Notes: generated by a model not told the origin, from the letters alone. A DNA stretch of 64,000 nucleotides from an uncultured Acidobacteriota bacterium (GCA_963741955.1 CAVUKB010000007.1:1235628-1299627); one strand, 5' to 3'. Numbered from the stretch's first letter, positions 29,728 to 60,542 are shown. Translations and numbers: made by a program.

Positions 29728-32298
29728 TCACGATCGCGTCTTCTCTGCGCGCGGAGGACACAACACCTTTCCCTCCGAAGCGGGAACGAGCCGGACGTTC
29801 GAGAGGCGAAGGCCGAGCGTTCCATCGGTGGAGATCTGGAGCGGACGGTTGATGCGCGTCATCTCCGCTCCCGCCTCTTCGAGACAGCGGAGACGGATCC
29901 TGACCGTCTTCCACTCCCGTGGCGGGAGCGTGCGCAGAATCGCGCTGACGTCCACCGAGCCGCGGCACTCCTCTCCGCATCCCATCGAGAGAATCGTCTT
30001 CGCTTTCGGAGGCTGTTCGATGAAGACGTCGAAGCTGAGGGCGAGCTCGCCGTTCGATTCCCGGGTCAGGTCGACCGGAGTCGCGGCCTGAATGAACAGC
30101 CAGGCCTTTCCACTGCCGTCCCATCGAGCGCGCAGTGCGTCGCTCTGCATCGCTCGATCGACCGGCTGAACCACCAGGCGGGTCGAGTTCACGGTGGACG
30201 TTCGCGTTCCCACGACCTCGAGCGCCGGGTTCTCCTGGTCGTCGCCGACGTACACGCGCCAGGGTGCGACGGGACCGGCATCGAAGTAGACAGTCCGGCT
30301 CACCGCATCGGCCGTCGTGTTTCCCGTCGACTCGGGGAGTTGGGGAAGAGCACCGTCGTCGGCGTAGGTCAGGCCGAAGCCGTATGCGAAGAGCGGGTCG
30401 TATTTCGCGTCTCCGCGATTGAGCACGGTCTGGCTGATGCTCCGCGGCCACGAGTACGCGAGCTTGCCGTGGAAGTCGTGATCGATCTCTCCGTCCGCCT
30501 TCCGGAAAAGGACGTCTGCCACCGCGGAGCCCTCGGTACCGGGAAGCCAGGCAGCGACGAACGCGTCGGAGGCGTTGAACTCCGGGTTGACCCATAGAGG
30601 CCGTCCGCTCAGGAAGATTGAAACGACTTTCACTCCGCTCTTTTTCAACTTCCGCAGCAGCTCTCCGTCATCGGAGTGGATGCGCTGGTACTCGATCGTG
30701 TCGAGATCTCCGCGGAACTCCGCGTAGGGCTCCTCACCGAAGACTGCGATCGCGACATCGACGGGAGCTCCGACGTTCCCCTCTTCTGCGAGGATCGCGG
30801 TTCCTCCGGATGCCTCGACGGCGGCGCGAATGCCGTCCCAGATCGACGAGCCGCCGGGGAAGTCGCTGTTCACGTTTCCGCTTCCCTGCCAGTTGAGCGT
30901 CCATCCACCGGTCTGCATCGGGATGCTGTTCGCTCCGCGGCCGACGACCGCGACGCGCTGGTCGCGTCGCAGCGGAAGAAGGTGACCCGAATTTTTCAGA
31001 AGCACCAGCGACTCACGAACCGCCCGGGCTGCGACCGCGCGGTTCCCGGCGCTCCCGAGCTCCTCGCTCTTACCGGCCAGCGGACGGCTCGACGGTTTCC
31101 CGCGGTCGAACAATCCCGCGCGCATCTTCACCCGCAGGATGCGGCGAACTGCGTCGTCGAGCCGAGCCATCGGGATCACGCCCGCGTTCACCTGGGCGAG
31201 GGTGTTTGTCCAGAGCTCCTTCCAATCCTCCGGCACCATGAACATGTCGACGCCCGCGTTGAACGCCGCGGCGCAGTTCCCGGTGGTACATCCTTCGAGC
31301 TGTCCGTGCGCGTTCCAGTCGCCGACCACGAATCCGTCGAACCCCATCCGATCCTTGAGCACCGCAGTGAGCAGATCGTGGTTGCCATGCATCTTCCGTC
31401 CATGCCAGCTCGAGAACGATGCCATCACCGTCTGTACACCCTCGCCGAGAGCACCGACGTATCCCGCGCCATGAATGTCCCGGAGCTCCTTTTCGGTGGA
31501 GAGGTTGTCGCCCTGGTCACGGCCATCGAGATTGCCGCCGTCGCCGAGGAAGTGTTTGGCCGTGGAGATGACGTGGTAAGCATCGAGGAACTCCGGCGTG
31601 CCGGGATCACCCTGAAGCCCGCGGACCATCGCCGCGGCGTACGCGCGGACGATCTCCGGATCTTCGGAGTAGCCTTCGTAGGTGCGTCCCCATCGGTCAT
31701 TGCGGACCACGGCGACGGTGGGTCCGAAGTCCCAGTCGAGACCGGTGACTGCCATTTCCCGCGCGGTGACTTCGCCGACTCTGCGGATCAGATCCGGATC
31801 GTGCGTCGCGCCGAGTCCCACGTTGTGGGGAAAGATGGTGGCGCCAGTGATGTGTGAGTGGCCGTGGACTGCGTCGGCTCCCCATATGATCGGAATCGCG
31901 ACTCCCCCTTTCGGAGGAGTCATGGATGCGTCCCAGAACGCATCGGCGACCGCGACCCAGTCGGCGGGCGTGGTGTGTTTCACTCCGTTCGGGTGCGAGT
32001 CGCCTCCGCTGAGGACCGACCCAAGGTGGTATCGGCGTACGTCATCGGGGGTGACGTGGAGGATCTCGGCCTGGATGACCTGACCGACCTTCTCCTCCAC
32101 GGACATCCGTGCAAGGAGATCGCTGACCTTCCGTTCGAGCTGGGGATCACTCGCCACGGGCGAGGGAACGACCGGCCAGAGATTCGGATGGATCACCGGG
32201 GGAGGGGTGGTGGTCCGGGGATGTTCGGGAGGGGCGGAAAAGACCGCCGGAATCGCGAGAGTGAGCAGCGTCGCAGCCACGAGGATTCGCGTGCGCAT
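29728..32298 (-). CDS. GH3 beta-glucosidase / exo-beta-glucanase with C-terminal galactose-binding-like domain
   Basis: DAVHGH, RWGRTYEGYSEDP, AKHFLGDG, MASFSSWHG, GFVVGDWN (nucleophile) and GEEPYAE; signal peptide from the ATG at 32298. Confidence 0.93.
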   Translation of the reverse strand: MRTRILVAATLLTLAIPAVFSAPPEHPRTTTPPPVIHPNLWPVVPSPVASDPQLERKVSDLLARMSVEEKVGQVIQAEILHVTPDDVRRYHLGSVLSGGDSHPNGVKHTTPADWVAVADAFWDASMTPPKGGVAIPIIWGADAVHGHSHITGATIFPHNVGLGATHDPDLIRRVGEVTAREMAVTGLDWDFGPTVAVVRNDRWGRTYEGYSEDPEIVRAYAAAMVRGLQGDPGTPEFLDAYHVISTAKHFLGDGGNLDGRDQGDNLSTEKELRDIHGAGYVGALGEGVQTVMASFSSWHGRKMHGNHDLLTAVLKDRMGFDGFVVGDWNAHGQLEGCTTGNCAAAFNAGVDMFMVPEDWKELWTNTLAQVNAGVIPMARLDDAVRRILRVKMRAGLFDRGKPSSRPLAGKSEELGSAGNRAVAARAVRESLVLLKNSGHLLPLRRDQRVAVVGRGANSIPMQTGGWTLNWQGSGNVNSDFPGGSSIWDGIRAAVEASGGTAILAEEGNVGAPVDVAIAVFGEEPYAEFRGDLDTIEYQRIHSDDGELLRKLKKSGVKVVSIFLSGRPLWVNPEFNASDAFVAAWLPGTEGSAVADVLFRKADGEIDHDFHGKLAYSWPRSISQTVLNRGDAKYDPLFAYGFGLTYADDGALPQLPESTGNTTADAVSRTVYFDAGPVAPWRVYVGDDQENPALEVVGTRTSTVNSTRLVVQPVDRAMQSDALRARWDGSGKAWLFIQAATPVDLTRESNGELALSFDVFIEQPPKAKTILSMGCGEECRGSVDVSAILRTLPPREWKTVRIRLRCLEEAGAEMTRINRPLQISTDGTLGLRLSNVRLVPASEGKVLCPPRAEKTRS

Positions 32299-32329
32299 GA
32301 TTCCTCCATCCGAAGGATGCTCGACCTCT

Positions 32330-33535
32330 TCACCGAAGAGGAGCGGGGTCACGTATCCAGTCGAGCAGTTGTCTTGCCGAGACGACCCGCACTTCGGGGC
32401 GGCTCAGTGCATCGTCGACGATCCGGAGCAGTGCCTCGCGGCGCTGCTCCGCAGTGGTGGGAAGTGTCTCCGGATACTGTTCCGAGTAGAGGTCGCTGTG
32501 GGCGCCGAACGTCAGAGGGGCGCGGTTGCCGTGGAGGCGCTGGTCGAGCGTGTATCGGAACGTCGCGACGACTTCCTCCGGCTTCATCCCGAACTCGACC
32601 CACAGGTTCCAGTCGAATCCGGTGATCTTTCCGTCCGCTGGATTGAAGTAGTCGCGAACGGCATGGAGGCGGTCGCGGAGACCCGGTTCGACGCCGTAGC
32701 GCGCGCACTCGGCATCCGGAGGGACGATCAGCGCGTAGACGGGAATCTCCCACAGCACGTCCTCGCGGGACGAACGCCCGCCGTACGACGGGTCGATCGC
32801 GTAAGGCCAGTAGAAGTTCTGCGCGTCGAACTGCGGGTCGAATCCTTCCTCGATGCTGCAGTCGTAAGAGATGCCGGCATCGCGAAGAGCGGGGAAGAGC
32901 GGCTTGCCATGTTCGAGATACGGGGTGCGGAATCCGACGATCTCCGCGACGTCGAGTCCGAGTCCGCTGGCGGGGTCGGATTCCGGTCCGGTGGTCAGCC
33001 AGCGCCGGCACGTCTCGATCTCGTTTCGCCACGCCGCTGTGGAAAGCTCTGCCCCGTGGGGATGCGTATGGGTGTGGAGAGCGATCTCGTGGCCCGCGTC
33101 CGCCATCGCGCGCCACGCCGCGCGGACGAATCGCGGCGAGTCGATGTCGGGAGCGGCGATGTAGCGGGTGACGACGTAGAGAGAAGTCCGGGCCGGGGCG
33201 CCGTCGAACGTCCGTGCACGCCCCTGGCCTTCGGGGTTCTTCTTTCCGGCGAAGAGCTCCTGCACGAACCGGATTCCCCCGGTCGTTCCCGAACCTTCGG
33301 CTCCGGAGATGGAGTTGTCGTCGAAGCCGAACTGGACGAACTGCGGCACGCGCTCCGGCGAGAGTCCGGCGGGCGGGAGCTGTGACGCGGATCCACCGCT
33401 CGGGTGGGCCGCAACCGCCGGCTGCGCCGGAGATCCGGGTCGCGGGGCCGCGGAGCAGGCTGCGAAAAGGAGGCCGATGGCGAGCGCGCCGGCGGCAGAT
33501 CCGAAGAAAGGATGACTCTTGCTCATTGTGGCCAT
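32330..33535 (-). CDS. Polysaccharide deacetylase (CE4/NodB-like) lipoprotein
   Basis: Lipobox FAAC; FGFDDN, HEIALHTHTH, GFRTPYL and YDCSI motifs. Confidence 0.85.
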   Translation of the reverse strand: MATMSKSHPFFGSAAGALAIGLLFAACSAAPRPGSPAQPAVAAHPSGGSASQLPPAGLSPERVPQFVQFGFDDNSISGAEGSGTTGGIRFVQELFAGKKNPEGQGRARTFDGAPARTSLYVVTRYIAAPDIDSPRFVRAAWRAMADAGHEIALHTHTHPHGAELSTAAWRNEIETCRRWLTTGPESDPASGLGLDVAEIVGFRTPYLEHGKPLFPALRDAGISYDCSIEEGFDPQFDAQNFYWPYAIDPSYGGRSSREDVLWEIPVYALIVPPDAECARYGVEPGLRDRLHAVRDYFNPADGKITGFDWNLWVEFGMKPEEVVATFRYTLDQRLHGNRAPLTFGAHSDLYSEQYPETLPTTAEQRREALLRIVDDALSRPEVRVVSARQLLDWIRDPAPLR

Positions 33536-33544: not shown

Positions 33545-33558
33545 CTAAATCGTTTAAG
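33545..33558. promoter_or_regulatory. LacI-family operator, copy 1
   Basis: CTAAATCGTTTAAG (reverse complement CTTAAACGATTTAG) in the 31-bp gap between two divergent deacetylase genes. Confidence 0.75.
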
Positions 33559-33566: not shown

Positions 33567-34802
33567 ATGAATCGAGTTCATATCGCTCTGGTCCTCCTCG
33601 TTCTCCCCGGGCTGATCCTCTCCTGCCGGACCGCGCCCGGAGCTGCCGGAGCGGCTGCCGCGCCGGTGGCTGCCGGCGCGATTCAGGCGACAGCCGGCGA
33701 TAGCGAAGCCCTGACCCGCTATCCCGCGCTTCTGGTGATCGCACCTCATCCCGACGACGAGTCTCTCGGATTCGCCGGTCTGGTCGACGCGTATCGAAGT
33801 GCGGGGAAGCCGGTTCGAGTGATCGTGGTCACGGACGGTGATGCGTACTGCGAAGCGTGCCGTTTCTGGAAGTCGAGCTCCGTCAACGGCCCGACCTGCG
33901 ACGCCGCGGACCTCTCGAATTTCGCAACGCCGGAAGTGGACTCCTTTGCCGAGGTGCGGCGCGCCGAGAGTGCGAAAGCGGCCGGGATCCTCGGCCTTCC
34001 TCCTCCTCTTTTCCTCGGGTATCCCGACACGGGCCTCGGCGCCGCCTGGACGAACTTTCAGGAGGGCGACGTTTCGAAGCCGCTGCGCCGCTCCGACTTC
34101 TCGCACTGCGAATCATGCGAGAGTTGTGCGGGAGGGTACGGAGAAGGGCCGGAGACGGAGCTGAGCGCGGAGACGCTGCTCCGAAGTCTGCGCGAGGAGA
34201 TCGCGTCGATGCCGGACGGGGCGCTCATTGCGACGACGCACCGGCTCGACGGACATCCGGATCACGCGGCGCTGGGAAGCTTCGTCGCGATGCTCGACCA
34301 AGAGCCGGGGGCGAGGTTCGCTCCGCATCCGGTCGCATACGCTGTGATCCACGCGCACACCGCCGGACCGAGTGCGCAGCCCGACTGCTGGTATCCCGCT
34401 CCGACCGCACCGGTGTGTCCCTGCATGGATCAGGCGCGGGCGCTCGCGGATCCGAAATGGATCGATCGTCTCGCCGCGCAGCGATTCCTTCCCGACTCTC
34501 CCGCGGCGCTGCCGGACGACGCTCCGTACGGCGAGGCGAAACAGCTGCGCCTTCCGGAACGGATGTACCGAGGCGCCGACGCGATCAAGCTGAAGGCGGT
34601 CGCGTCGTACGCGTCGCAACTCGGCCGTCGTGCGAGAGAAGGTGATCACCCCGCAGCGCTGAACGGAATCCTCGACTGCAGCGGCTATCTGATGGCGTTC
34701 GTGCGGAGCACGGAGGCATTCGTTCTGATCGAGCCGGGAGCCGCATCCAAACCCGAGGCCGGTCACGCCGCCACTCCAGCGGGGGGTTCGGATGCGGAGT
34801 GA
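33567..34802 (+). CDS. PIG-L/LmbE family N-deacetylase, Cys-rich lipoprotein
   Basis: APHPDDE, VTDGD, RRAES, LGYPD and DGHPDH motifs; lipobox ILSC. Confidence 0.88.
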   Translation: MNRVHIALVLLVLPGLILSCRTAPGAAGAAAAPVAAGAIQATAGDSEALTRYPALLVIAPHPDDESLGFAGLVDAYRSAGKPVRVIVVTDGDAYCEACRFWKSSSVNGPTCDAADLSNFATPEVDSFAEVRRAESAKAAGILGLPPPLFLGYPDTGLGAAWTNFQEGDVSKPLRRSDFSHCESCESCAGGYGEGPETELSAETLLRSLREEIASMPDGALIATTHRLDGHPDHAALGSFVAMLDQEPGARFAPHPVAYAVIHAHTAGPSAQPDCWYPAPTAPVCPCMDQARALADPKWIDRLAAQRFLPDSPAALPDDAPYGEAKQLRLPERMYRGADAIKLKAVASYASQLGRRAREGDHPAALNGILDCSGYLMAFVRSTEAFVLIEPGAASKPEAGHAATPAGGSDAE

Positions 34803-34842: not shown

Positions 34843-35814
34843 CTACTGCGACCACCAGGTGGGCTGCCGGTCCCACCGGTGAGCGCGAAGTGCGGCCATG
34901 ACTCCGGAACTCAGCGGACCGGAGTCGCTGGCGGCGATGTTCGCCTCGACGTGCGAGCGTTTTCGCATCCCGGGTATCGCCGTGGTCACGGCCGGATGGG
35001 AAAGGATGAAACGGAGCGCGAGCTCCGGCATGGTCATTCCTTCGGGGACCAGTGGTTTGAGTCGTTCGACGTGCTCGACCGTCGCCGAGAGATTCTCGGG
35101 AACGAAGTACGTGTTGCGCCAGTCTCCTTCCGGCCAGACCGAGTCCGCCGTGAGGCTTCCGGTCAGCGAGCCTTCGTCGAACGGAACCCTCGCGATCACC
35201 GCGACATTCATCTCGGCAGTGGCGGGGAAGAGCTCATCCTCGGGGGACTGGTCGAAGATGTTGTAGATCACCTGAACTGCATCGATCGCGCCGCTGCGGA
35301 CCGCGCGAACACCGTTCCACGCCTCCCATCGATTGATGCTGATGCCGACGCCTCCGATCAACTTCTGCCGTCGCAGCTCGTCCACGGCTCGATGCCATCG
35401 ATCGTCGTCGAGCCAGTCGTCTTCCCAGACGTGAAACTGCAGCAGATCGAATTCGTCGAGCCCGGAGCACTCCAGGCTTCGATGCAGGGATCGCTCGATG
35501 TGATCGGGAGGGAAGACCTCGTCGAGCGGGACTCCGCGGCGGCTCGGCCACTCGTCGTTGAGTGGAGGGATCTTCGTTGCGGTATGGAGGCGACGTTCGG
35601 GATGACGTCGTACGAGCTCTCCGAGCAGCCGGTCACTGTGGCCGTCGCCATAGGCGAGCGCGCTGTCGAAGAAGTTGCATCCGAGCTCCACGGCGCGGTC
35701 GAGAGAGGCGAGGGATTCGGTGTCGTCGGAACCGGTCCACTCTCCCATTCCCCACATGCCGGCGCCGATCTCGCTCACTTCCCATCCGAGGCGGCCGAAG
35801 GCGCGGTATCGCAT
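34843..35814 (-). CDS. Aldo/keto reductase
   Basis: MRYRAFGRLGWEVSEIG, FFDSALAYGDGHSD, QVIYNIFDQ and LSHPAVTTAIPG. Confidence 0.92.
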   Translation of the reverse strand: MRYRAFGRLGWEVSEIGAGMWGMGEWTGSDDTESLASLDRAVELGCNFFDSALAYGDGHSDRLLGELVRRHPERRLHTATKIPPLNDEWPSRRGVPLDEVFPPDHIERSLHRSLECSGLDEFDLLQFHVWEDDWLDDDRWHRAVDELRRQKLIGGVGISINRWEAWNGVRAVRSGAIDAVQVIYNIFDQSPEDELFPATAEMNVAVIARVPFDEGSLTGSLTADSVWPEGDWRNTYFVPENLSATVEHVERLKPLVPEGMTMPELALRFILSHPAVTTAIPGMRKRSHVEANIAASDSGPLSSGVMAALRAHRWDRQPTWWSQ

Positions 35815-35927
35815 GAGAGAGATTGTAGTGCGTTCGGAGCGCCGAGTGAATTGGTGAACGTCCGAAAACAAATCAGAGCAGTTCCCGCGGCGGCGGGGAG
35901 AGAGCTCGAGGCCGAACGGAGAACATC

Positions 35928-36878
35928 GTGAATCGATACAGAGTCGTACCTTCGATCCTCTTCCTCGCCACCCTGGCGCTGCCCTCCTTCGCGCAGCCGG
36001 CGAAGACGGTGCAGGAGAGACTCGGATATCCGGCGACGGCGCGTCTGCTGATCATCCATGCCGACGACCTCGGGATGGCGCACTCGGTGAATCGGGCGAC
36101 GTTCGAAGCGCTGGAGAATGGGTGGATCACGTCCGCGAGCATCATGGTTCCGACTCCGTGGTTCGCCGAAGCGGCGCGATGGGCTCGTGCGCATCCGGAT
36201 GCCGATCTCGGAATTCATCTGACTCTCAACTCCGAGTGGGCCGATTACCGCTGGGGTCCGGTTGCCCTGCGGGGCGAGGTCGGATCGCTGCTCGACGGCG
36301 ACGGATACTTTGAGGTGGTGGAAGAGCCGGTGGTCGAAAAGGCGCGGCCGGAAGAAGTCGAGCGTGAGCTGCGGGCGCAGGTCGACAAGGCTCGCGCGGC
36401 GGGAGTGAGGATCTCTCATCTCGATTCCCACATGGCAACCCTGTTCCGTTCGGAACCTCTGTTCGAGGTTTACCAGCGGCTCGGAAGGAGCTACGGCATT
36501 CCCCTTCTCATCGAGCGCCAGGGCGCGCGTGGGGGAGCGGAGTCGGAATCGGCGAAGGCGAAAGACGGTGCACTCGTGGACCGGGTGGTGTCGATTCAAC
36601 CCGGAGTGCCGATCTCGGAGTGGCCCGCAGCGTACGAGGCGATCCTCTCTCGACTGCCGCCCGGCGTGTACCAGCTGATCGTTCATCTCGCGTACTCGGA
36701 TCCCGAGATCCGAGGCGCGACTCGGGATCATCCCGACTGGGGAGCGGCCTGGAGGCAGGCGGATCTCGATCTCGTACGCAGCGACGGGTTTCGGCGGTTC
36801 CTGAAGGATCAGGGGTTCGTGCTGATCGGCTGGAGTGATCTCTCCCGCGCGCTCGGCACGCCTTACGACCGCCATTGA
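35928..36878 (+). CDS. YdjC/ChbG-family carbohydrate deacetylase, exported
   Basis: IIHADDLGM, GIHLTLNSEW and HLDSHM motifs; signal peptide. Confidence 0.88.
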   Translation: MNRYRVVPSILFLATLALPSFAQPAKTVQERLGYPATARLLIIHADDLGMAHSVNRATFEALENGWITSASIMVPTPWFAEAARWARAHPDADLGIHLTLNSEWADYRWGPVALRGEVGSLLDGDGYFEVVEEPVVEKARPEEVERELRAQVDKARAAGVRISHLDSHMATLFRSEPLFEVYQRLGRSYGIPLLIERQGARGGAESESAKAKDGALVDRVVSIQPGVPISEWPAAYEAILSRLPPGVYQLIVHLAYSDPEIRGATRDHPDWGAAWRQADLDLVRSDGFRRFLKDQGFVLIGWSDLSRALGTPYDRH

Positions 36879-36913
36879 GAGACATCGTCAGACACGGGTG
36901 CGGAGGAAGAGAC

Positions 36914-37834
36914 ATGACGACTCACGACGCGACTCTTGGGGCGGAGCTCGGCGGACCCGAGCTCCGGGGAGCCTCGAGCGAGGCGATCATCGGAGTGGAT
37001 CTCGGAGGAACGCGGGTCCGCGCCGGAAGAGTGAGGGATGGGAAGATCGAATGCAGTGTCTCCCACCGGATCTCCGGTGCGGAGGCGGTGGACGTCGTCC
37101 TCGGCGAGATTTTCGAAGCGATCGACGAAGTCGCCGACGGAAGTTGTGCCGGAATCGGATGCGGCGTCCCGAGCGTGGTCGACGTCGCGCACGGCATCGT
37201 CTATGCCGTCGAGAACATCCCCTCGTGGCAGGAAGTCCCGTTTCAGGACGAGCTGGAGCGGCGATATCTGGTCCCGGCGCGCATCAACAACGACGCGAAT
37301 GCATTCGCGGTCGGCGAGCTCTATTTCGGCCAGGGGCGTGGGCATCGCAATCTGGTGGGAATTACCATCGGAACCGGACTCGGTTCCGGGGTGGTGATCG
37401 ACGGCCATCTCTACAGCGGAACGAACTGCGGCGCGGGAGAGATCGGGAACATTCCCTATCGCGACGGCACGCTCGAGAGCTTCTGTTCCGGAGCATTTCT
37501 CAGGCGCGAGAGCGGGATGGACGGAGAGGCGGTGTTCGCCCGTGCACGGGACGGAGATCCGGCCGCGCTCGAGCTCTTTCGTTCACTGGGGGGTGCGGTC
37601 GGCGATGCCGTGATGATCGCACTCTACGCGTACGACCCGGAGATCGTGATTCTGGGAGGATCGGTGAGTCGCGGCTATGCCTTCTTCGAAAAGGAGATGC
37701 GCCAGCGCCTGAGGGGTTATGCTTTCGCCCATGCGCTGGGGCGGCTGCACATCGTCCGTAGTGAGATCGAAGACGTCGCACTCCTCGGGGCGGCAGCGAT
37801 CTATCTCGATTCACATTTGACTAAAACGATTTAG
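36914..37834 (+). CDS. ROK family sugar kinase
   Basis: GVDLGGT, NNDAN, IGTGLGSG and GAGEIG; no HTH. Confidence 0.9.
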   Translation: MTTHDATLGAELGGPELRGASSEAIIGVDLGGTRVRAGRVRDGKIECSVSHRISGAEAVDVVLGEIFEAIDEVADGSCAGIGCGVPSVVDVAHGIVYAVENIPSWQEVPFQDELERRYLVPARINNDANAFAVGELYFGQGRGHRNLVGITIGTGLGSGVVIDGHLYSGTNCGAGEIGNIPYRDGTLESFCSGAFLRRESGMDGEAVFARARDGDPAALELFRSLGGAVGDAVMIALYAYDPEIVILGGSVSRGYAFFEKEMRQRLRGYAFAHALGRLHIVRSEIEDVALLGAAAIYLDSHLTKTI

Positions 37835-37845
37835 CTGAGTAGGAT
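37817..37845 (+). promoter_or_regulatory. Sigma70 promoter with overlapping LacI operator (copy 2)
   Basis: TTGACT (37817-22), 17-nt spacer, TAGGAT (37840-45); operator CTAAAACGATTTAG at 37821-37834. Confidence 0.8.
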
Positions 37846-39020: not shown

Positions 39021-39024
39021 CGCA

Positions 39025-52058: not shown

Positions 52059-54427
52059 TACTCCTCGAGGTTCGCTCCCGCCGTGCCCGTCGTGGAATGG
52101 AGAAAAGCCTGATGGTAACGGGCCTGACGAAGCGCCTCGTCCAGTGCTGCTTTGTCGCCGTTGCGTGAGTCGATGTCTGCGAGGAGGAACCAGGCGAGGG
52201 CCTTCATCTCGTGGTCCTTCGCCCGTTCGAGGCCGAGCCGGGCGTACTTCGCGGCTTCTGCGACACGGCCGGGCTGATCGAGAAGAACGCGCGCCAGCAT
52301 CAGAGGCGGACGCGCGCCGTGCTCCGGATCGTTGTCGACCACGACGCGAATCACGGATTCGGCTCCGGCCCGGTCCCCGAGACGGAAGAGGAGCTCAGCC
52401 AGGTTGAACCTCGCCACCATCTCCTTCGGCTGCGCCTCGATCTCCGCGTGGTACGCGGCAGTTGCTTCCACGAAACGCTTCTGCTGCTCGCGGAGGAGCG
52501 CGAGGTGATAGTGGGCGAGGGGAAACTTCGGATATTCGCTGATGATGTCGGTGAGAATCCGTTCGGCTTCGTCCAGGTGTCCGGTTCCGATCAGACACGC
52601 CGCGAGGTTGTTGCGGCTGCGGGTGAGCTTCGGCTGGATCTCGACGACCTTCCGGAGGAGCGGGAGGGCGGCGGTGTGGTCGTTGCGGCTGATGTAAACG
52701 TCCGCCATCAGTTCCCAGGCCCGGGCGTTCTTCTCGTCCCTGGCGAGAGCGGTGCGGCAGATCGCGATGACGTCGTCGTCTCGTCCTTCATCCGAGAGGA
52801 TCTCGGCCATGGAGATCAGAGCCTGCGGATTCCCCGGGTCCCTCTTCAGGTAGCGATCGAGAATCGCCTTTGCCTTTCCGATCTCCTTCGTCTTCCGGTA
52901 GACGGAAGCGAGGAGGATCTGGGCCTGTGGGACATCGGGATCCTCGCTCAACACCTTCTGCAGGACCTCGGAAGCCTCGGTGTACTCATTCCTGAAGATC
53001 AGTTGTGCCGCATAGCCGACACCTTCATAGAGAACCAGTTTGTCTTTCGGGTCGGCGAGTTTGCTTTCGTCTTCGGTGCGGGCGGAACCTCCGCCGAGGT
53101 ATCCGAGTGAGGAGAGCTTCGCCATCGTCTCCGCATCGAGATTGGCCTCGGCGGCTTCGGGCGCTCCTTCTTCGATCTTCGTGCGCATCGTAGTGAGAGT
53201 GGCGCGGAGCTCATGCGCGACGCGGCGCTGGTCGTCGAGATGGTTGGCTTTCTCGTCGGGATCACTACGAAGGTCGTAGAGCTCGGCGCGGGGAGCCTCG
53301 ATGTACTTGTAGTCGTTGGTGCGAATGCTGTAGAGGCCACTCCAACCGTACTGGAGCTTCGTCGCCACCGATTCGCTGTACGCATAGCGGGGTGCAGCGG
53401 GCTCACCGCCATCGATCAGGGAGGCGAACGACTCGCCCTGGACGCTCTTTACGGGCTCGTCCCCGAGAAACTCGAGAATGGTGGGGAAGATGTCGACGGT
53501 ACTGACCTGTGCGGCCACTCGTTTTCCGCCGCTGCCGTTCGAGGGGAGGTGGACCAGGAGAGGGACGTGAACGGCGTAGTCGTAGATGAAGTAGCCATGC
53601 TCCGATTCGCCGTGACTCCCGAGGCCTTCGCCGTGATCTCCGACTACCACCACGATGGTGTCTTTGGCGAGGCCGCGGGCAGAGAGGGCGTCAAGGAGGC
53701 GTCCGACCTGGGAATCGACGAACGCGATCTCGCCGTCGTAGAGAGAGCTCGGATCGTCCGACGTGAAGCGTGAACGGAACGGCTCGGGAGGTTCGTAAGG
53801 GGTGTGTGCATCGTAGAGATGCACCCACGCGAAGAACGGTTTGGGACCCGGCTCGTCGAGCCATTTCAGCGCGGCGTCGACGACCTGATTCGCGGGACGT
53901 TGAACTCCGGCGAGATCGAGACGCTGGTCCGCTCCGATCTGGAAATCGTCGTCGTAGCGATCGAATCCCTGATTGAGGCCCCACCGTCCGTCGAGCACGA
54001 ATGCGCCGACGAACCCGCCGGTGCGGTAGCCGTCCTGCCGAAGCCGTTCCGCCATGGTCACGTTCGCCTCTGCGAGCCCGGCGTTCCCGTTGATCCGGAC
54101 TCCATGGTAAGGAGGGTAGGTTCCGGTCATGATCGACGAGTGTGACGGGAGAGTGTAGGCAGTCGGAGTGATGCAGTGCTCGAAGAGAATGCCTTCGCGG
54201 GCGAGACGATCGAGGCGGGGCGTCTCCGCACGGGTGTCGCCGTAGCAGCCGAGATGGTCCGCGCGGGTGGTGTCGAGAGTGATCAGGAGGATGTTCGCCT
54301 TCCGGTAGATCGCAGCCTGGCTCCGGTTCACGGTCAGAGGAGTGCGGCGCCAGAGAAACGACCACGCGCCGACGACGACCACCAGCAATGCGACTGCGAA
54401 TATCCAGATGCGTCGTGACGAGATCAT
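52058..54427 (-). CDS. Sulfatase-like (alkaline phosphatase superfamily) hydrolase with C-terminal TPRs
   Basis: NILLITLDTTRADH, TLPSHSSIMTG, HLYDAHTPY, VGDHGE and ELYDL; TPR tail; stop overlaps the GH9 start (TAATG). Confidence 0.9.
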   Translation of the reverse strand: MISSRRIWIFAVALLVVVVGAWSFLWRRTPLTVNRSQAAIYRKANILLITLDTTRADHLGCYGDTRAETPRLDRLAREGILFEHCITPTAYTLPSHSSIMTGTYPPYHGVRINGNAGLAEANVTMAERLRQDGYRTGGFVGAFVLDGRWGLNQGFDRYDDDFQIGADQRLDLAGVQRPANQVVDAALKWLDEPGPKPFFAWVHLYDAHTPYEPPEPFRSRFTSDDPSSLYDGEIAFVDSQVGRLLDALSARGLAKDTIVVVVGDHGEGLGSHGESEHGYFIYDYAVHVPLLVHLPSNGSGGKRVAAQVSTVDIFPTILEFLGDEPVKSVQGESFASLIDGGEPAAPRYAYSESVATKLQYGWSGLYSIRTNDYKYIEAPRAELYDLRSDPDEKANHLDDQRRVAHELRATLTTMRTKIEEGAPEAAEANLDAETMAKLSSLGYLGGGSARTEDESKLADPKDKLVLYEGVGYAAQLIFRNEYTEASEVLQKVLSEDPDVPQAQILLASVYRKTKEIGKAKAILDRYLKRDPGNPQALISMAEILSDEGRDDDVIAICRTALARDEKNARAWELMADVYISRNDHTAALPLLRKVVEIQPKLTRSRNNLAACLIGTGHLDEAERILTDIISEYPKFPLAHYHLALLREQQKRFVEATAAYHAEIEAQPKEMVARFNLAELLFRLGDRAGAESVIRVVVDNDPEHGARPPLMLARVLLDQPGRVAEAAKYARLGLERAKDHEMKALAWFLLADIDSRNGDKAALDEALRQARYHQAFLHSTTGTAGANLEE

Positions 54428-54634: not shown

Positions 54635-57600
54635 TCAGCCTCCGAACGAGTACTTCACTCCCATGCGATACGTCCGTGGCTGCACGATCGAATAGACACG
54701 GCCGTAATCTCCCTCGTAGAAACCGACCTTGTTCGGCGAGTTCTCGTTGAACGCATTCAGTACGTCGAACGAGATTCTCAGCGCGCCGAAGCCGCCGGCT
54801 TTGAGGCTCTTGGAAAGACTCAGGTCGACGATGGACGTCGACGGGAGCCAATCGGGATGTTTCGGATCACTGGCGACCATGCCGCCGTCGCCCGGTCCGA
54901 GATAGACACCTTCCGGGATCTCGCTCATCCAGGTCGCGAAGACCGGGATGGTCTGGATCGGGAAGATCGGGCGTCCGCTATCGTAGCGGTACCGCAGTCC
55001 GAAGTCCGTCTCGATCATTGGCAGAGTGTAGTTGCCGGAGATCTTGACCATCCACTTCGGGGTCATCGGCAGCGGCCCTTCCATGTTGTTCTGGAAGTGA
55101 TTTCTCGAGCTGCCGAACGGGGTATCCATCACCATCGGTCCATCGATGTACCAGTTCTGATCGACGGTCCTGGGTGCGATCCCGTTGCTGCGGTTCCAGT
55201 TGATGGAAGCCATTCCCTGCCAGCGGTCGGAATAGCGTTTGGTGAAGACGGTCTGCAGGCCGTCGTATGTGCGAGTGGCGTCCTGTCCCGCGAAGTCCTG
55301 AACGTTGACCGCGCGGTACCTCAGGTGATTGGACACGAAGACCGCGTCCTGGACGTCCGCCACGCCGTCGCCGTTGTAGTCCTGGAGCTGGATGCTCCAG
55401 ACCTGGGTGTTGTAGCCCGTCCAGGTGGTGAACGGCAGCGACTCCCACTGGTAGAACTCACCGGTGGCCGTGTTGTACGGCTCGAGCGAGATCATGTCGT
55501 TGGTTTTCTTGTGGATGTATCCGAACTCCACGGCGAACTTGCTGCCGATCTGTCTCTGGATGGAGAGGTTGTACTGATCGGTGTAAGGGCTGCGGGTTCC
55601 GGGATCGACCTGCAGATACCAGCTCGGATCCGAGACGTTGCTCGACATCAGCGACGAGGGATCGTACTTGTTGAGCAGGCGCGTCGCCGGTCGCACCTCT
55701 TCGAAATCGACCATCCCGTTTCCGTTGAGGTCGACCTCCGACATCGGCAGAAGGTACAGCCAGGTCTCGGTCAGAGACGGTTCCATGTCCGGACCGAAGC
55801 GACGCAGCGCTTCGACCCCCATCGGCGCGTAGTAGCGACCGACGTGTCCTCGCAGGACGGTCTTGTTGTCTCCGGTGATGTTCCATGCAAATCCGAGTCG
55901 AGGAGACCACGTCTTGAAGTCGAAGACGTTGCCGGTTCCAGCCCGGTTTCTGAGAACGGTGGGATTGTTGATGTCCGCCGGCGTGGTGGGCATCTCGTAG
56001 ACCTTCCCTTCGCCGTACTTCGCGGTCATCTCGTCGTAGCGGAGTCCGACGTTGAGGGTGAGCCGGTCGTTGAGGTCCCACGTGTCATCGAAGAACGCCC
56101 CGGTGGATCCCGACTTCCGGACGGTGAGCCACGGGTTGCGGTAGATCTTGTTCACGTACATCGGGAAAACCGGATTCTCGTCGGTTCCCCACTGCCATGA
56201 CTCGGGACCGTTCCACCACCAGTCTTTCGCCGGACCGTAGTCCCACGGATAGGGGTAGGCGAAGTTGGCGTAGCCCTGGAAGTAGCCGCCTTCCCAGTTT
56301 CCTTCGGCCTTGGTGTACTGGACGCCGAATTTCATCTCATGTTCGCCGAGGAAATGCTCGGCGTAGTGAGTGATGTCGGCCTGGAGCGTCTGGCGTTTCG
56401 ACTTCTGCGCTTCGACGAAGGGGAAATCACCACCGAGCCCGATGCTCTGGGCGCCGATCCACTTCCACCAGTTGACCCAGCCGGGATGTCCGTACTCGGC
56501 GGGGATGGTGGGATCCTGTTTGGTGTCGTAACCGAGAAGCTTACCCGAGACGAGATCGTGGCTCGAGATCATCCATTGATACTCGGCCTGAAGGGTCTGG
56601 TTCTTCTGGGGCGAGGTGTAGACCATGCTCGCATCCCAGGTGTCGCCCCAGGACGTGTTGTCGGACTGTGTATCTTCGCCGTGATACGCGAGCCAGGCCC
56701 GGTGATTCATGGCGAACTCGCCGGTGAACTTCAGGTCGTACAACTTCGCCTTCCAGATCGCCAGCGGCTCGAAGAGCGGCGTGTCGGTCTTGGAGCGGAC
56801 ATCGTTGTATGCGGCGAAGAACCACAGCTTGTTCTTCAGAACCGGTCCGCCGAACGTGATGCTCGCGTCGTCACTGTCGACCGGACGAGTCATCAGCGCG
56901 GCGTCGGGGGCGGCGTAATAGATCCCCCCGAAGTTGGTGGTCATGTTGTCGCTCGCGTTCCCCACCATCCCGTAGTAGGCGAGGTCGCCCATGAAGTCGT
57001 TGCCGCCGGACTTGGTCAGCACGTCGATGGCCGCGCCGGAGAAGCTCCCGTACTCGGCCTTCGACCCGGTGGCGATGATCTTCACTTCCTGCACCGTGTT
57101 GTAGTTGACGTTGACCAGCGAGCCCCACGAAGCGCCGCGAGGATTCGTGGCATTGACGCCGTTGACCAGGAAGATGTTCTCGTTCGCCGCACTACCGAGT
57201 ACCGAGGGGCTCGGTAGCCACGACTCTTCCTTCCCGACCGGAGCGACACCGGGAGCGCTCGTCGCGAGGTCGTAGAACGCGCTCCTGCCGGTCGGTACGA
57301 CCTCCAGAAGCTCTTTCGAGAAGGTTGTGTCGGTCGTCGCCGAGCGGGTGTCGAACACCGGCGAGTCAGCGGTCACGATGATCGTCTCTTCGTACGAGCC
57401 GGGCTCGAGCCTCACCTTGAAAGAGGCCTTGTCGCCGGCCCGGATCACGATCCCCTTCTGCGAATACGTGGAGAAGCCGTCGAGGCTCGCCCTCAGTTCA
57501 TAACTTCCGGGAGGAATGGAGAGAAAGACGAATCGTCCTTCGTCATCGGAGACCATCATCCGCTCTCCCGAGACCAGCGCGGGGCTGATGATCGTGACAG

Positions 57601-57754
57601 TGACCCCGGGAGCCGGCTCACCGGAGCTGAGATACACAGTTCCCGTCAGCGATCCTTCGTGGACGGCCTGCGCCCACGCCGGGCTGACGGCAACCAGCGC
57701 GAGGATCAGACAGACTCCCAGCGGGCCCGCTATTCTGTTCAGACATCTGACCAT
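54635..57754 (-). CDS. TonB-dependent receptor (Oar-like, N-terminal carboxypeptidase-regulatory-like domain)
   Basis: LTGTV..PGVTVT..GRFVF..PGSYEL; plug AEYG..GAAIDVLTKSGGN; LTLNVGLRY, SPRLGFAW and PRTYRMGVKYSF; AAGGAG RBS before the ATG at 57754. Confidence 0.93.
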   Translation of the reverse strand: MVRCLNRIAGPLGVCLILALVAVSPAWAQAVHEGSLTGTVYLSSGEPAPGVTVTIISPALVSGERMMVSDDEGRFVFLSIPPGSYELRASLDGFSTYSQKGIVIRAGDKASFKVRLEPGSYEETIIVTADSPVFDTRSATTDTTFSKELLEVVPTGRSAFYDLATSAPGVAPVGKEESWLPSPSVLGSAANENIFLVNGVNATNPRGASWGSLVNVNYNTVQEVKIIATGSKAEYGSFSGAAIDVLTKSGGNDFMGDLAYYGMVGNASDNMTTNFGGIYYAAPDAALMTRPVDSDDASITFGGPVLKNKLWFFAAYNDVRSKTDTPLFEPLAIWKAKLYDLKFTGEFAMNHRAWLAYHGEDTQSDNTSWGDTWDASMVYTSPQKNQTLQAEYQWMISSHDLVSGKLLGYDTKQDPTIPAEYGHPGWVNWWKWIGAQSIGLGGDFPFVEAQKSKRQTLQADITHYAEHFLGEHEMKFGVQYTKAEGNWEGGYFQGYANFAYPYPWDYGPAKDWWWNGPESWQWGTDENPVFPMYVNKIYRNPWLTVRKSGSTGAFFDDTWDLNDRLTLNVGLRYDEMTAKYGEGKVYEMPTTPADINNPTVLRNRAGTGNVFDFKTWSPRLGFAWNITGDNKTVLRGHVGRYYAPMGVEALRRFGPDMEPSLTETWLYLLPMSEVDLNGNGMVDFEEVRPATRLLNKYDPSSLMSSNVSDPSWYLQVDPGTRSPYTDQYNLSIQRQIGSKFAVEFGYIHKKTNDMISLEPYNTATGEFYQWESLPFTTWTGYNTQVWSIQLQDYNGDGVADVQDAVFVSNHLRYRAVNVQDFAGQDATRTYDGLQTVFTKRYSDRWQGMASINWNRSNGIAPRTVDQNWYIDGPMVMDTPFGSSRNHFQNNMEGPLPMTPKWMVKISGNYTLPMIETDFGLRYRYDSGRPIFPIQTIPVFATWMSEIPEGVYLGPGDGGMVASDPKHPDWLPSTSIVDLSLSKSLKAGGFGALRISFDVLNAFNENSPNKVGFYEGDYGRVYSIVQPRTYRMGVKYSFGG

Positions 57755-58044
57755 GATCGCTCCTTTCACGTTTTCGACAGCGGTAGAACACGATTGAAAC
57801 CTGCACCTCTATCCGCACCGCCCCGTGCGGAAAGGTGAGCTCGAAGGCTGAGGGAAACCGGCCGATCCGGAGAGACGCCGGGAGAGGGGAAACGGAGGAG
57901 GATCGGAGCCGCGCAGCTCCCGGGTCCGGCTCGCCGCCGGGCCTCCGCGTCTCGGATTCGCGGTGCCGCGAACCCGCTTTCGAATCCGTCCATCACGTCT
58001 GCTCCAGTTCACCGGGGCGTAATTCTCGAGAATGCGGGAGCTGG

Positions 58045-58176: not shown

Positions 58177-60084
58177 ATGCCCGTTGCCGCGTCTCTCGTT
58201 CCCTTCGTCCCTCTCGACTGGATCTGGACCGCCGCCTTCATCGCTCTGATGATCGCGTGCGGGGTGATCTTCTACCGCCTCGGCAAACGGAGCGAATCCG
58301 ACTTCTTTCTCGCCGGGCGCGGACTCCCCTGGTGGCTTCCCGCGACCTCCGTCTACGCCACCCACACCGCGACCGATACGCCGATGTGGATCGGCGGGAC
58401 GATCTACCGGTGGGGGATGCGCGGGATCTGGTACCCGTTCTTCAGCGCCTGGTGCGCGGTCTCGCCGTTCGTATCCACCCGGATCTTCCGGCGCTCGATG
58501 GCGATGAGCCAGGCCGAGTGGCAGAACCTCCGCTACTCGGGACTCGGCGCGCATCTGCTGCGCGGCTGGCTGGCCGGGTGGCAGACGTTCATGAACATGT
58601 TCGTCGTCGCGTGGGTCTCGGCGGCGATGGGAAAAGTCTGCACGTACCTGTTCGGCTGGCCGCCGTGGCTCGGGATCGTCCTCTTCACCACCATCTGCGC
58701 GGTCTACGTCCTCGCCGCGGGCTACTGGGGCGTGGTGATGGCCGACTTCCAGCAGGGACTGATCAGCTTCGCGGTGATCACCCTCGTGTCGCTGTGGGGA
58801 ATCGCCGAGGCCGGCGGGCCGGCGGTGATCATCCACAAGCTCAGCGTGCTGGGTGAGGGGTGGAGGACGAATCCGTTCCACTTCGACGCGCTCTGGGGGC
58901 TCGATCCGGGGAAGTTTTACGCACTCGACGTTCTCACGCTCCTCTTCATGGCCCTCCTCGGCGGTCTGGGGATGGGGAACTTCATCGACTGGTACCCCGA
59001 AGCGCAGCGGATCCAGAGCGCGCGGACGGTGCGTGACGCCTCGTACTCCATCTGGGCGGGAGGACTCGCCGCAATCTTCCGCAACTCGTTCTGGGCGGTG
59101 TCGATCCTGGCGTTCTTCGTCCTCTTCCCGCACATCACGAGCCCCGGTACGTACGAATTCGGTTGGTTTCGCCTCGGCTTCGACTACATGCCCGCGGGAC
59201 TGATCGGGATGTTGTTCGCGGGGATCATCGCCATCCATCTCTCGACCATCTCCACCCATCTCAATCTCGGAGCGCTCTATGCGACGCGCGACCTCTACCA
59301 CCACTACGTGAATCCGAAGGCGGACGAGAATCACCTGGTGAAGGTGGGACGGGTGAACACGTTCTTCCTCCTCGTCGGGAGTTTCGTCCTCGCGCTCTCG
59401 ATGGAGTCGATCACCGCGTGGCTGATCTTCGCCCTGTGGCTGCAGGCGGCAGGGATCTGGGTTCCGTCGATCCTGCAGGTTCTCTGGTGGCGTTTCAACT
59501 CGTGGGCTTACCTCGCGAGCTGGATCGCAAATCTGGCGATGAGCTGGCTGGTGGTGTTCGTCCTCCCCGCACTGGGGATCCTGCCGGAGCTTCCGGACTG
59601 GCTGAATTTCTGGCTTCTCGCGTTTCTGGTCTCCCTGGTGTACGTGCCGGTCTGCTTCCTGACGAAGCCGGACGACATGGATCATCTGGTCGAGTACTAC
59701 GTCCAGGCCCGTCCGGCGGGATGGTGGGCTCCGGTGAGGAAGGAAGCGATCCGGCGCGGGATGATGACCCCGGAGATCTCGGAGCGGAAGGGGTGGTTCG
59801 AGCAGCAGTGGAGTCCGGAAGAGGCGGACGACTGGACGCGACACGACGTCTACGCGGCAATCCTCTCCGCGCTCTGCTACGTCCTGGTGGCGGTCGGAAT
59901 CGCCGGTGCACTGCTGCTGCAGGTCTGGGGATTCGTGGCGCTGGTCGGGAGTGTCGTCTGCGGCTGGCTGATGTACCGGATCATCGACCCGAAGCTCAGG
60001 GCACTCTCGGCCGCGTTCGAACTGAACCAGAAGGGATACCTCGATCGCATGAACCGCCGCACCCGTTGGGAGGACCCACAGTGA
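58177..60084 (+). CDS. Sodium:solute symporter family protein
   Basis: DFFLAGRGLPWW, GYWGVVMADFQQ, QRIQSAR and STISTHLN motifs. Confidence 0.92.
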   Translation: MPVAASLVPFVPLDWIWTAAFIALMIACGVIFYRLGKRSESDFFLAGRGLPWWLPATSVYATHTATDTPMWIGGTIYRWGMRGIWYPFFSAWCAVSPFVSTRIFRRSMAMSQAEWQNLRYSGLGAHLLRGWLAGWQTFMNMFVVAWVSAAMGKVCTYLFGWPPWLGIVLFTTICAVYVLAAGYWGVVMADFQQGLISFAVITLVSLWGIAEAGGPAVIIHKLSVLGEGWRTNPFHFDALWGLDPGKFYALDVLTLLFMALLGGLGMGNFIDWYPEAQRIQSARTVRDASYSIWAGGLAAIFRNSFWAVSILAFFVLFPHITSPGTYEFGWFRLGFDYMPAGLIGMLFAGIIAIHLSTISTHLNLGALYATRDLYHHYVNPKADENHLVKVGRVNTFFLLVGSFVLALSMESITAWLIFALWLQAAGIWVPSILQVLWWRFNSWAYLASWIANLAMSWLVVFVLPALGILPELPDWLNFWLLAFLVSLVYVPVCFLTKPDDMDHLVEYYVQARPAGWWAPVRKEAIRRGMMTPEISERKGWFEQQWSPEEADDWTRHDVYAAILSALCYVLVAVGIAGALLLQVWGFVALVGSVVCGWLMYRIIDPKLRALSAAFELNQKGYLDRMNRRTRWEDPQ

Positions 60085-60542
60085 TCAGCGAAGCGATGGG
60101 GAAGATTCTCGGTATGGCCATGGCGTACGCGGTGAGCGCGCTCGGTCTGCTGCTGGCGTACTACAACTACCGGAAGAGGGTGGTGAGAGCGGAGCGGGTG
60201 ATGAGCAGCACGGCGTGGACCGTGGTCGTGATCATCTTCCTGGTGATCGGAGCGGGGGGCTGGACGGTCCACCGCCTCGCGGGGAAGGCGGCAGCGGCGG
60301 CGATCTCGGAGGAGCAGCCGACGGAGGTCGCGGCAGCATCGGAAGAGACGGCGCCGATCGCGGAGGAAGCGCCGCAGGAGGGAATGCCGCGAAGGATCAC
60401 CGATCGATGGCCGTGGGTGGGGATCGCAATCCCCGCGGCGATCTTTCTCTTCGCGACGTGGGTCACCGCCGCGTTGCACCATCACTTCGCGATCCGCGTG
60501 CACGGGGGAACGCCGGGAGAAGACCGCGTCGAGAAAGAATGA
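60081..60542 (+). CDS. Hypothetical 3-TM membrane protein
   Basis: GTG start overlapping the SSS stop (GTGA); three hydrophobic segments. Confidence 0.65.
   Translation: MISEAMGKILGMAMAYAVSALGLLLAYYNYRKRVVRAERVMSSTAWTVVVIIFLVIGAGGWTVHRLAGKAAAAAISEEQPTEVAAASEETAPIAEEAPQEGMPRRITDRWPWVGIAIPAAIFLFATWVTAALHHHFAIRVHGGTPGEDRVEKE

Follow-up and report, generated by a model that had tools for sequence, protein, structure and literature searches.

A locus at positions 29728 to 60542 of a 64,000-nucleotide stretch from an uncultured Acidobacteriota bacterium (CAVUKB010000007.1:1235628-1299627; the whole stretch is called the window below) is read here, with a probability of roughly 60%, as a LacI-controlled system for the uptake and complete exo-degradation of partially N-acetylated, β-linked glucosamine (GlcN) chains, in which deacetylation is the way past N-acetylglucosamine (GlcNAc) residues. 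The substrate would most likely be chitosan or chito-oligomers, e.g., from fungal walls. The evidence consists of family assignments, conserved residues, co-localization, gene fusion in relatives and predicted operators, all obtained computationally. The glycoside hydrolases (GHs), deacetylases, kinases, SIS enzyme, transporters and TonB-dependent receptor (TBDR) listed by a sequence-only reading of the window were all recovered by Pfam and NCBIfam searches. The logic which that reading proposed, deacetylation followed by release of GlcN, is supported by the GH2 enzyme, the operators, the fusion of a CE4 domain to a barrel protein and the lack of GH18, GH19 and GH20; the parallel it drew with Thermococcus kodakarensis does not hold beyond this logic.

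The GH2 enzyme and the predicted operators

By sequence, the GH2 protein is a CsxA-type exo-β-D-glucosaminidase and not a mannosidase. In a search of Protein Data Bank (PDB) sequences it matched CsxA of Amycolatopsis orientalis (2vzs) over residues 22-872 (E of 4e-160, 538 bits), whereas the best β-mannosidase, 5n6u, reached only 4e-42 and 148 bits, and it contains an Ig_GlcNase domain (PF18368). E394, D469 and E541 of CsxA are all kept in the alignment, and the motifs LGSDM, TETG and VRLEGF of the GH2 enzyme align to IGSDF, SETS and VRLEGH. We take D469 and E541 to be the catalytic residues of CsxA, and four one-residue variants of the CsxA chain in the PDB are consistent with these roles. 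E394 is reported to bind the C2 amine (PMC6566704). The assignment made by the sequence-only reading is thus upheld, and action solely as a β-mannosidase, one of the outcomes it had named as fatal to its proposal, is very unlikely given the CsxA match and the retained residues. Homology to CsxA is full length and includes Ig_GlcNase, and both enzymes are exported. The window enzyme differs in being a Gram-negative lipoprotein behind a TonB receptor and in having no CBM35-type tail, as the match stops at residue 892 of the 1032 of the CsxA chain. Actinomycete chitosan utilization pairs CsxA with a GH46 chitosanase, whereas the partners of the window GH2 are an MFS importer and a ROK kinase that has no zinc motif.

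Reading of the intergenic DNA revealed an AT-rich 14-bp palindrome at three places (O1 to O3), from which the pattern CTWAAWCGWTTWAG was built. With ≤2 mismatches this pattern had exactly three sites in the window against 0.19 expected, and none of 100 shuffles reached three, although the count is partly circular since the pattern was derived from the sites that it then finds. With O2 alone as the seed and ≤3 mismatches, only O1 and O3 were found in the window besides O2 itself. Two results are free of this circularity: the rarity of the pattern genome-wide and an orthologous site in a related locus. In the whole 5.4-Mb genome, ≤1 mismatch gave four sites, three of them in the locus, while a reversed-pattern control gave two; the fourth site (C13:95203) lies in an AT-rich stretch between two convergent gene ends and was set aside as chance. 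An exact search over 95 fetched loci gave no match, and a relaxed 12-mer had two sites in 1.35 Mb of these loci, one of them at the orthologous place in L013, the closest related locus, where TAAATCGATTTA immediately precedes the gene of the LacI orthologue. Since the predicted operator is shared by three promoter regions, the locus is read as one regulon; this points to joint control of the deacetylase genes, the GH2 operon and the uptake genes and bears out the suggestion that the locus acts as one system.

Missing families, deacetylases and the two-barrel protein

The scanned open reading frames (ORFs) of the window gave no Pfam or NCBIfam match to GH18, GH19, GH20, NagA or NagB, as the sequence-only reading had stated. 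For the three GH families this extends to the genome, which is 99.1% complete: GH18, GH20, GH46 and GH8 were not found by searches that rang in control genomes, and GH19 and GH75 were not found by searches that stayed silent in the controls. As GH18, GH19 and GH20 are lacking from the genome, no route past GlcNAc residues is visible other than deacetylation. SusD (PF07980) was likewise not found genome-wide, with a control that rang in Bacteroides, so that the earlier description of a TonB receptor without SusD stands. For NagA and NagB, in contrast, the statement holds within the window only. Both are encoded on contig 9 (NagA, 288 bits; NagB, 263 bits and above its NCBIfam cut-off), with MurQ and a D-Ala-D-Ala carboxypeptidase. 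The MurQ-NagA-NagB operon (G000:C9:64647-67636; L094, 6648-9637) looks, from its gene content, like a unit for recycling peptidoglycan amino sugars, and it could receive GlcN-6P from the locus.

The CE4-like, PIG-L and YdjC deacetylases all carry N-terminal export signals, as claimed before; such signals were hydrophobic N-termini judged by eye. They were also seen in the GH3, GH2, GH42-like and GH9 enzymes and in a 652-aa protein, with lipobox-like cysteines in the CE4-like, PIG-L, GH2 and 652-aa proteins, and were absent from the kinases, the SIS enzyme, the aldo-keto reductase (AKR) and LacI. YdjC matched the NCBIfam models for carbohydrate deacetylase (1e-42) and ChbG (2e-19), both under cut-off. 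The only PDB sequence match of PIG-L was TT1542 (E of 0.005, residues 55-92 only); closeness to any solved PIG-L enzyme was not detectable beyond the N-terminal motif.

The 652-aa lipoprotein had no sequence match in Pfam, NCBIfam or the PDB, where only a chance match (E of 0.058) appeared. Its AlphaFold models are confident (pLDDT of 89.8 for the full protein and 95.9 for the N domain) and show two TIM barrels. The modeled C barrel (residues ~300-650) matches GH42 (1kwg; Z of 27.0, root mean square deviation [rmsd] of 2.7 over 302 residues), the C-terminal GH153 domain of PgaB (4p7l; Z of 26.9, rmsd of 2.9 over 304 residues) and Cwp19 (Z of 26.3) about equally, and its top Foldseek match is PgaB (E of 2e-13). 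The modeled N barrel is nearest to Cwp19 (Z of 17.2), followed by many GH5-type barrels (Z of 14 to 15). Assignment to a single family by fold was therefore abandoned, as GH42, GH153 and GHL10 are inseparable for the C barrel, and Cwp19 and GH5-type folds for the N barrel; neighbors in the ESM Atlas, a lead only, were confined to GHL10/DUF4015-like clusters. Some acidic residues are invariant, and there is a C...CxCxxC cluster, which presumably resembles the GH42 zinc site. By its modeled fold, the protein is glycosidase-like, with a bond specificity that the fold does not reveal. More than 416 homologues were found, and the source names shown were all "hypothetical" or deacetylase names; a profile search gave 2308 representatives of 50% clusters, including 717 with E ≤1e-30. 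Either half is also found singly and as part of larger proteins.

Fusions in relatives link the CE4-like enzyme with the barrel protein. The last 363 residues of P0029, a barrel-protein homologue of 1014 aa, are 64% identical (E of 7e-165) to the whole mature CE4-like enzyme of the window, and in genome G100 the CE4-like and N-barrel parts form a single 721-aa ORF (L096:7328-9493). No such single protein is present in the window, where the two are separate genes 9 kb apart. Domain order seems to vary in the family: in six Saccharicenans/Aminicenantes loci (L053, L059, L071, L047, L042 and L048) the barrels appear reversed, C-type then N-type, and P0003 (935 aa) apparently has two N-type barrels.

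The same coupling suggests the main rival, in which, instead of β-1,4-linked chitosan, the cell would use an exopolysaccharide of bacteria or fungi with a high content of GlcN and GlcNAc, e.g., partially deacetylated poly-β-1,6-GlcNAc (PNAG), or another GlcN-bearing exopolysaccharide, with CE4 and barrel acting as in PgaB by deacetylation and then cleavage. PgaB combines CE4 with GH153 and, like the window family, couples a CE4 domain (by fusion in the relatives) to a TIM barrel with the fold of the PgaB C-terminal domain, and it is reported to cleave only deacetylated PNAG (PMC5933820). The fold scores are tied among GH42, PgaB and Cwp19, however, and so do not point specifically to GH153. 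Identity to PgaB is 9-13%, there are two barrels rather than one, and the context in the window is catabolic, with no PNAG synthase or porin family found among the locus ORFs by general Pfam and NCBIfam scans. CsxA, moreover, is known as an exo-enzyme of β-1,4-linked chitosan. We consider an exopolysaccharide substrate unlikely on balance. Much less probable still is remodeling of the cell's own envelope or matrix glycans, i.e., biosynthetic trimming by the exported enzymes rather than feeding. PgaB and Cwp19, the closest folds, are described as acting on polymers of the producer (PMC5933820), but the locus has a TonB receptor, sugar importers, kinases and a repressor, the same general scans found no glycosyltransferase family among the ORFs, and related modules include a deaminase-type gene.

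Recurrence of the modules and the proposed route

Eighty loci anchored on the barrel protein were compared by tblastn with the window proteins; they come mostly from Acidobacteriota classes and Aminicenantes, with some from Bacteroidota and others. As many of them end at contig ends, all counts are lower bounds. In 18 loci a CsxA-like GH2 (≥40% identity) is encoded no more than 10 kb away, and four further loci have only a GH2 of 24-28% identity. MFS1 was found in 15 loci, ROK1 in 15 (following GH2-MFS1), the sulfatase-like gene in 10 and the TBDR in 8, the last two lying upstream in 8 to 10 of the loci. The other genes are rarer (CE4-like, 5; YdjC, 5; PIG-L, 1; GH42-like, 4; SIS, 3; MFS2, 3). 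Two recurrent modules emerge. Module A comprises the TBDR, sulfatase-like protein, GH2, MFS1, ROK1 and barrel protein, and module B comprises the barrel protein, GH42-like enzyme, ROK2, SIS and MFS2 (complete in L024 and L062; partial in L061, L087 and L089); the window locus unites both. MFS1 is 62-79% identical across related modules, and a homologue of the sodium:solute symporter (SSS) with 77% identity adjoins the module in L045. Across 301 genomes sampled from the phylum without an anchor protein, GH2 occurred in 28, the barrel in 17 and both in 11, against ~1.6 expected if independent; kinship among the genomes breaks that assumption, so this comparison overstates the case. In 6 of the 11 genomes with both, the GH2 and barrel genes are no more than 6 kb apart. 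Conservation of the cluster, which the sequence-only reading had proposed as a check, is seen as recurrence of the two modules in other genomes, for module A in other Acidobacteriota, while among close kin the locus is patchy.

Three genomes (G100, G115 and G175) share the order TBDR, sulfatase-like, GH2, MFS1, ROK1, gap and a CE4-like match beside a barrel match; the module end was read in detail in G100 only. There, the gap holds a gene for a 345-aa protein with two SIS matches (L096, 9373-10410), 33% identical to a 666-aa two-SIS frame on contig C6 of the window genome that was read as GlmS; no closer counterpart was found in the window or at the four SIS loci of that genome used for comparison (L001, L002, L004 and L005). 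From its sequence, the G100 gene likely encodes a SIS-type GlcN-6P deaminase, and a deaminase-type gene at this place ties module A to GlcN catabolism.

Independent recurrence of the parts is also what would be seen if the locus were a mosaic of neighboring modules for β-glucan (GH3 and GH9), another sugar (GH42-like/ROK2/SIS/MFS2) and GlcN (GH2/MFS1/ROK1), with the deacetylases acting elsewhere, on O-acetylated hemicellulose or envelope glycolipids. GH2-MFS1-ROK1 occurs without GH42, and barrel-GH42-ROK2-SIS-MFS2 occurs without GH2 (L024 and L062); GH3 lies near the barrel gene in 1 of the 80 loci and GH9 in 5, mostly at 22-28% identity (median, 25.6%); and YdjC also matches HpnK, and PIG-L matches BshB and Mca, all weakly (NCBIfam). 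Yet predicted operators are common to the gap between CE4 and PIG-L, the lacI-GH2 unit and the gap between SSS and TBDR, the GH3 gene lies downstream of the CE4-like gene and overlaps it, the GH9 gene abuts the sulfatase-like gene behind the TBDR, and the CE4-like enzyme is fused to the barrel protein elsewhere. A mosaic thus seems improbable to us, though no more so than an exopolysaccharide substrate.

Under the preferred reading of a single system for chitosan-like chains, oligomers would enter the periplasm through the TonB receptor, where the CE4-like enzyme and the two-barrel lipoprotein may open or shorten the chains and PIG-L and YdjC may strip the remaining N-acetyl groups. The CsxA-type GH2 would then release GlcN from nonreducing ends, and the GH42-like enzyme may act likewise. 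GlcN would be imported by MFS1, phosphorylated by ROK1 and, as GlcN-6P, deaminated by NagB from the other contig. In the GH42-like/ROK2/SIS/MFS2 sub-module, the UPF0309 SIS enzyme may deaminate or perform a related step, and GH3 and GH9, which belong to the same transcription units, may serve for β-glucan or mixed linkages. The order of these steps and the roles of the barrel protein, GH42-like enzyme, SIS, AKR, GH3, GH9, SSS and sulfatase-like protein are proposals drawn from the gene families and their arrangement.

A hint that the deacetylases may stand in for a hexosaminidase comes from the seven GH2-positive genomes of the phylum sample with no GH20. A CE4-like gene lies beside the module in all four that were checked (the window genome G000 and G100, G115 and G175), three of which belong to one family; G163, G132 and G213 were outside this check. 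No CE4-like gene was present in 20-kb stretches of the GH20-positive genomes G220 and G089. Although the numbers are small, the pattern fits such a replacement.

Several points weigh against the preferred reading, in addition to the partial circularity of the operator count. The substrate is deduced from families and context, and no endo-chitosanase of a known family was found in the genome. The CE4-like enzyme matches PF01522 weakly (1e-7), albeit with its motifs present, and CE4 also contains O-acetyl esterases. PIG-L has no close characterized relative, and ChbG of Escherichia coli, a member of the YdjC family, works in the cytoplasm on a phosphorylated disaccharide. GH3 is nearest to β-glucosidases and GH9 to endoglucanases. 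GH20 is found in 120 of the 301 genomes, among them 21 of the 28 that are GH2 positive, and lies within 10 kb of GH2 in three (G092, G332 and G264), so the deacetylases are not a general feature of the module. Finally, of 60 further genomes from the order of the window organism, just two gave a match to the GH2 query at E ≤1e-50. One of these matches, in G004, is CsxA-like (66% identity) and lies in an AKR-ROK1-GH2-MFS1 arrangement; the other (32%) is probably a different GH2. With so few matches the locus is patchy among close kin, and this spread, together with a transposase gene ~10 kb away, makes horizontal acquisition possible.

The GH42-like enzyme has the GH42 catalytic and trimerization domains and keeps both catalytic glutamates: IGELQ aligns to LMEQ of 9ta3, which contains the nucleophile Glu, and WDLWSEP and IGELQ are kept in five homologues. 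W-S-E-P replaces the Asn-Glu acid/base motif, which in GH35 and GH42 galactosidases is reported to read the C2 hydroxyl, while in GlmA an Asp at the Asn position binds the GlcN amine (PMC6566704). With Ser-Glu in this place, C2 recognition would be altered in an uncharacterized manner. The enzyme was rejected as a GlmA orthologue, since 5gsl and 5gsm matched just at E of 1e-4 to 2e-3 over the N terminus only and the motif is Ser-Glu, not Asp-Glu. Both ROK proteins lack the CxCGxxGC zinc motif, and ROK1 has no HTH domain.

The window SIS enzyme has one SIS_2 domain and is UPF0309/NagS-like, not of the GlmS-like two-SIS deaminase type, so the parallel with the Thermococcus deaminase in the sequence-only reading is not supported. 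It matches PDB 9eol (E of 3e-35, 125 bits) and, in that alignment, keeps NagS residues H53, R64, E94, D179 and N228, with S91 and S121 replaced. NagS (SCO4393) is the Streptomyces GlcNAc-6P dehydratase and shares the UPF0309/SIS_2 family with it; H53, R64, E94 and D179 are reported as essential, homologues of ~30% identity outside Streptomycetaceae as having no dehydratase activity, and orthologues as defined by 58.7% identity or more and linkage to dmdR1 (PMC12680351). The window enzyme is a distant homologue (125 bits), and its gene is coupled to ROK2 and MFS2 rather than to dmdR1; on both counts it was rejected as NagS proper. UPF0309 was not mentioned among the matches listed in a literature search.

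GH9 was considered as an exo-glucosaminidase of the Vibrio type (VC0615 and PBPRA0520), a subgroup marked by extended loops that block the -2 subsite. The structures 6gdt, 5dgr and 3h7l, described as Vibrionaceae exo-glucosaminidase GH9 structures (PMC6096475), were absent from its 25 PDB matches at E ≤1, and this was given up as the favored reading; CelD (1clc) matched at 6e-101. The best NCBIfam matches of GH3 were exo-β-1,3/1,6-glucosidase and BglX, both under cut-off, and it has a KHFLGDGG motif rather than the D-[ST]-H of NagZ.

The sequence-only reading had regarded the system as a candidate for new metabolism, but the concept is already in print: exported deacetylases that turn chito-oligomers into GlcN oligomers, which are then hydrolyzed and phosphorylated, are proposed in the genome paper of Chitinispirillum alkaliphilum (Fibrobacteres) (PMC4814513), and a (GlcN)2 pathway with an exo-acting GH9 is described for Vibrionaceae (PMC6096475). 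In those organisms (GlcN)2 is imported and split in the cytoplasm by GH9, and GH18 chitinases are present, whereas the window genome has none and its GH2 would release GlcN outside the cytoplasm. T. kodakarensis (Tk-Dac of the PIG-L family, GlmA, a kinase and the SIS enzyme GlmD) has the same logic of deacetylation, GlcN release, phosphorylation and deamination, and both systems include a protein of the PIG-L family and an enzyme with a SIS fold. The predicted steps of the window system differ in being periplasmic rather than cytoplasmic and in using a GH2 rather than a GH35 glucosaminidase; the genome also has a canonical NagB, and its SIS enzyme is a single-domain UPF0309 protein, not GlmS-like. 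What is new is the shared predicted operator, the fusion of CE4 to the barrel in relatives and the presence of the system in a genome lacking GH18, GH19 and GH20. Among the papers listed in a literature search, no TonB-dependent locus for chitosan utilization with a GH2 glucosaminidase was found by title or abstract, and a search for chito-oligomer deacetylase, exo-glucosaminidase, glucosamine kinase and periplasm gave no paper combining three of these four.

A bolder proposal can be made tentatively, and we hold it to be doubtful as a whole: the two-barrel lipoprotein and CE4-like enzyme might represent a new GH family that cleaves hexosamine polymers only after local de-N-acetylation, a catabolic counterpart of PgaB, and the Ser-Glu GH42-like enzyme, zinc-less ROK and UPF0309 SIS enzyme, with a new phosphosugar activity, might form a second, as yet undescribed amino-sugar route. 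If so, both routes would let bacteria with neither chitinase nor hexosaminidase live on chitin- or biofilm-derived amino-sugar polymers. Turnover of chitin and chitosan in soils and sediments is usually credited to organisms with GH18 and GH20; the locus suggests that widespread, mostly uncultured bacteria of the Acidobacteriota type may feed on the deacetylated fraction or on amino-sugar polymers of biofilms with another set of enzymes. The two TIM-barrel modules, Ser-Glu GH42-like enzymes and non-Streptomyces UPF0309 proteins are large families and candidates for new carbohydrate-active or amino-sugar enzymes, and the predicted LacI operator offers a handle on the regulon.

Gene inventory and surroundings

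The G+C content of the window is 62-68%, and genes were therefore chosen by third-position G+C (GC3); the picked ORFs were scanned against Pfam and NCBIfam (Table 1). Four of the genes go beyond the list of the sequence-only reading: those for LacI, the AKR, the sulfatase-like TPR protein and the 652-aa lipoprotein. Ten genes, from YdjC to MFS2 (35928-50253), are all transcribed in one direction and overlap or are separated by short gaps. The SIS gene was located through a weak match at 48644-48793 in a whole-genome SIS search, followed by translation; it is translationally coupled to both neighbors, with an ATGA where its start and the stop of ROK2 overlap and with a stop codon that overlaps the start of MFS2.

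Table 1. Genes and predicted operators of the locus, with positions in the window
Feature	Position	Strand	Basis or remark
GH3 with Exop_C, BglX/ExoP type, exported	29728-32352	-	GH3 N 7e-76, GH3 C 9e-34, Exop_C 2e-42
CE4-like deacetylase lipoprotein	32330-33535	-	PF01522 1e-7; FDD, HTHTH and RTPY motifs
Predicted operator O1, CTAAATCGTTTAAG	33545-33558		31-bp gap between divergent CE4-like and PIG-L genes
PIG-L family deacetylase lipoprotein, 411 aa, PHPDDE motif	33567-34802	+	PF02585 9e-21
AKR, cytoplasmic	34843-35871	-	PF00248 1e-45
YdjC-family carbohydrate deacetylase with signal peptide	35928-36878	+	PF04794 2e-55
ROK1 sugar kinase	36875-37834	+	PF00480 2e-42
Predicted operator O2, CTAAAACGATTTAG	37821-37834		71 bp upstream of lacI
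LacI-family repressor	37905-39020	+	LacI HTH 9e-11, Peripla_BP_3 3e-35
CsxA-type GH2 lipoprotein (by sequence) with Ig_GlcNase	39025-41655	+	PDB 2vzs 4e-160; PF18368 2e-28
MFS1, GluP/FucP/NagP-type sugar:H+ symporter	41652-42974	+	Pfam, NCBIfam
652-aa lipoprotein, two glycosidase-type TIM barrels (model)	42985-44943	+	No family match; AlphaFold (AF2) model
GH42-like hydrolase, exported, Ser-Glu for Asn-Glu	45124-47403	+	PF02449 3e-44, GH42M PF08532 9e-19
ROK2 sugar kinase	47400-48332	+	PF00480 3e-51
SIS_2/UPF0309 phosphosugar enzyme, 249 aa, NagS-like	48329-49078	+	PF13580 1e-39; PRK02947 1.5e-81 (above cut-off)
MFS2 transporter	49075-50253	+	PF07690 3e-42
GH9 with CelD_N (N-terminal Ig domain), exported, endoglucanase-like	50331-52058	-	PF00759 1e-86
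Sulfatase-fold TPR protein, membrane-anchored	52058-54427	-	PF00884 4e-49
TBDR, CarboxypepD_reg N-terminal domain	54635-57769	-	Pfam
Predicted operator O3, CTTAAACGATTTAA	58082-58095		82 bp upstream of SSS, 313 bp upstream of TBDR start
SSS family transporter	58177-60084	+	PF00474 4e-15
148-aa small membrane protein downstream of SSS	60096-60542	+	Translation; system membership uncertain

The sulfatase-fold protein stands between the TBDR and GH2 in ten loci (L013, L030, L037, L038, L040, L045, L096-L098 and L100). It was rejected as a true sulfatase, since residues 1-450 contain no C/S-x-P-x-R and the expected place is occupied by T-L-P-S-H. The AKR gene lies alongside ROK1-GH2-MFS1 in G004, where the protein is 78% identical, and is also present in L019 and L099; it has no obvious amino-sugar role. 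The 148-aa protein directly 3' of SSS gave no Pfam match and has three hydrophobic segments.

Genes upstream of ~28 kb are unrelated and include an RND efflux pump, a transposase and a glutamate dehydrogenase. The transposase gene, of the DDE_5 type (18419-19831), lies ~10 kb upstream of the locus and adjoins the RND efflux operon (19965-25509). Farther upstream, positions 12966-15944 encode a 992-aa protein with a weak match to a response-regulator receiver and a PPDK_N (PEP-utilizing, ATP-binding) domain.

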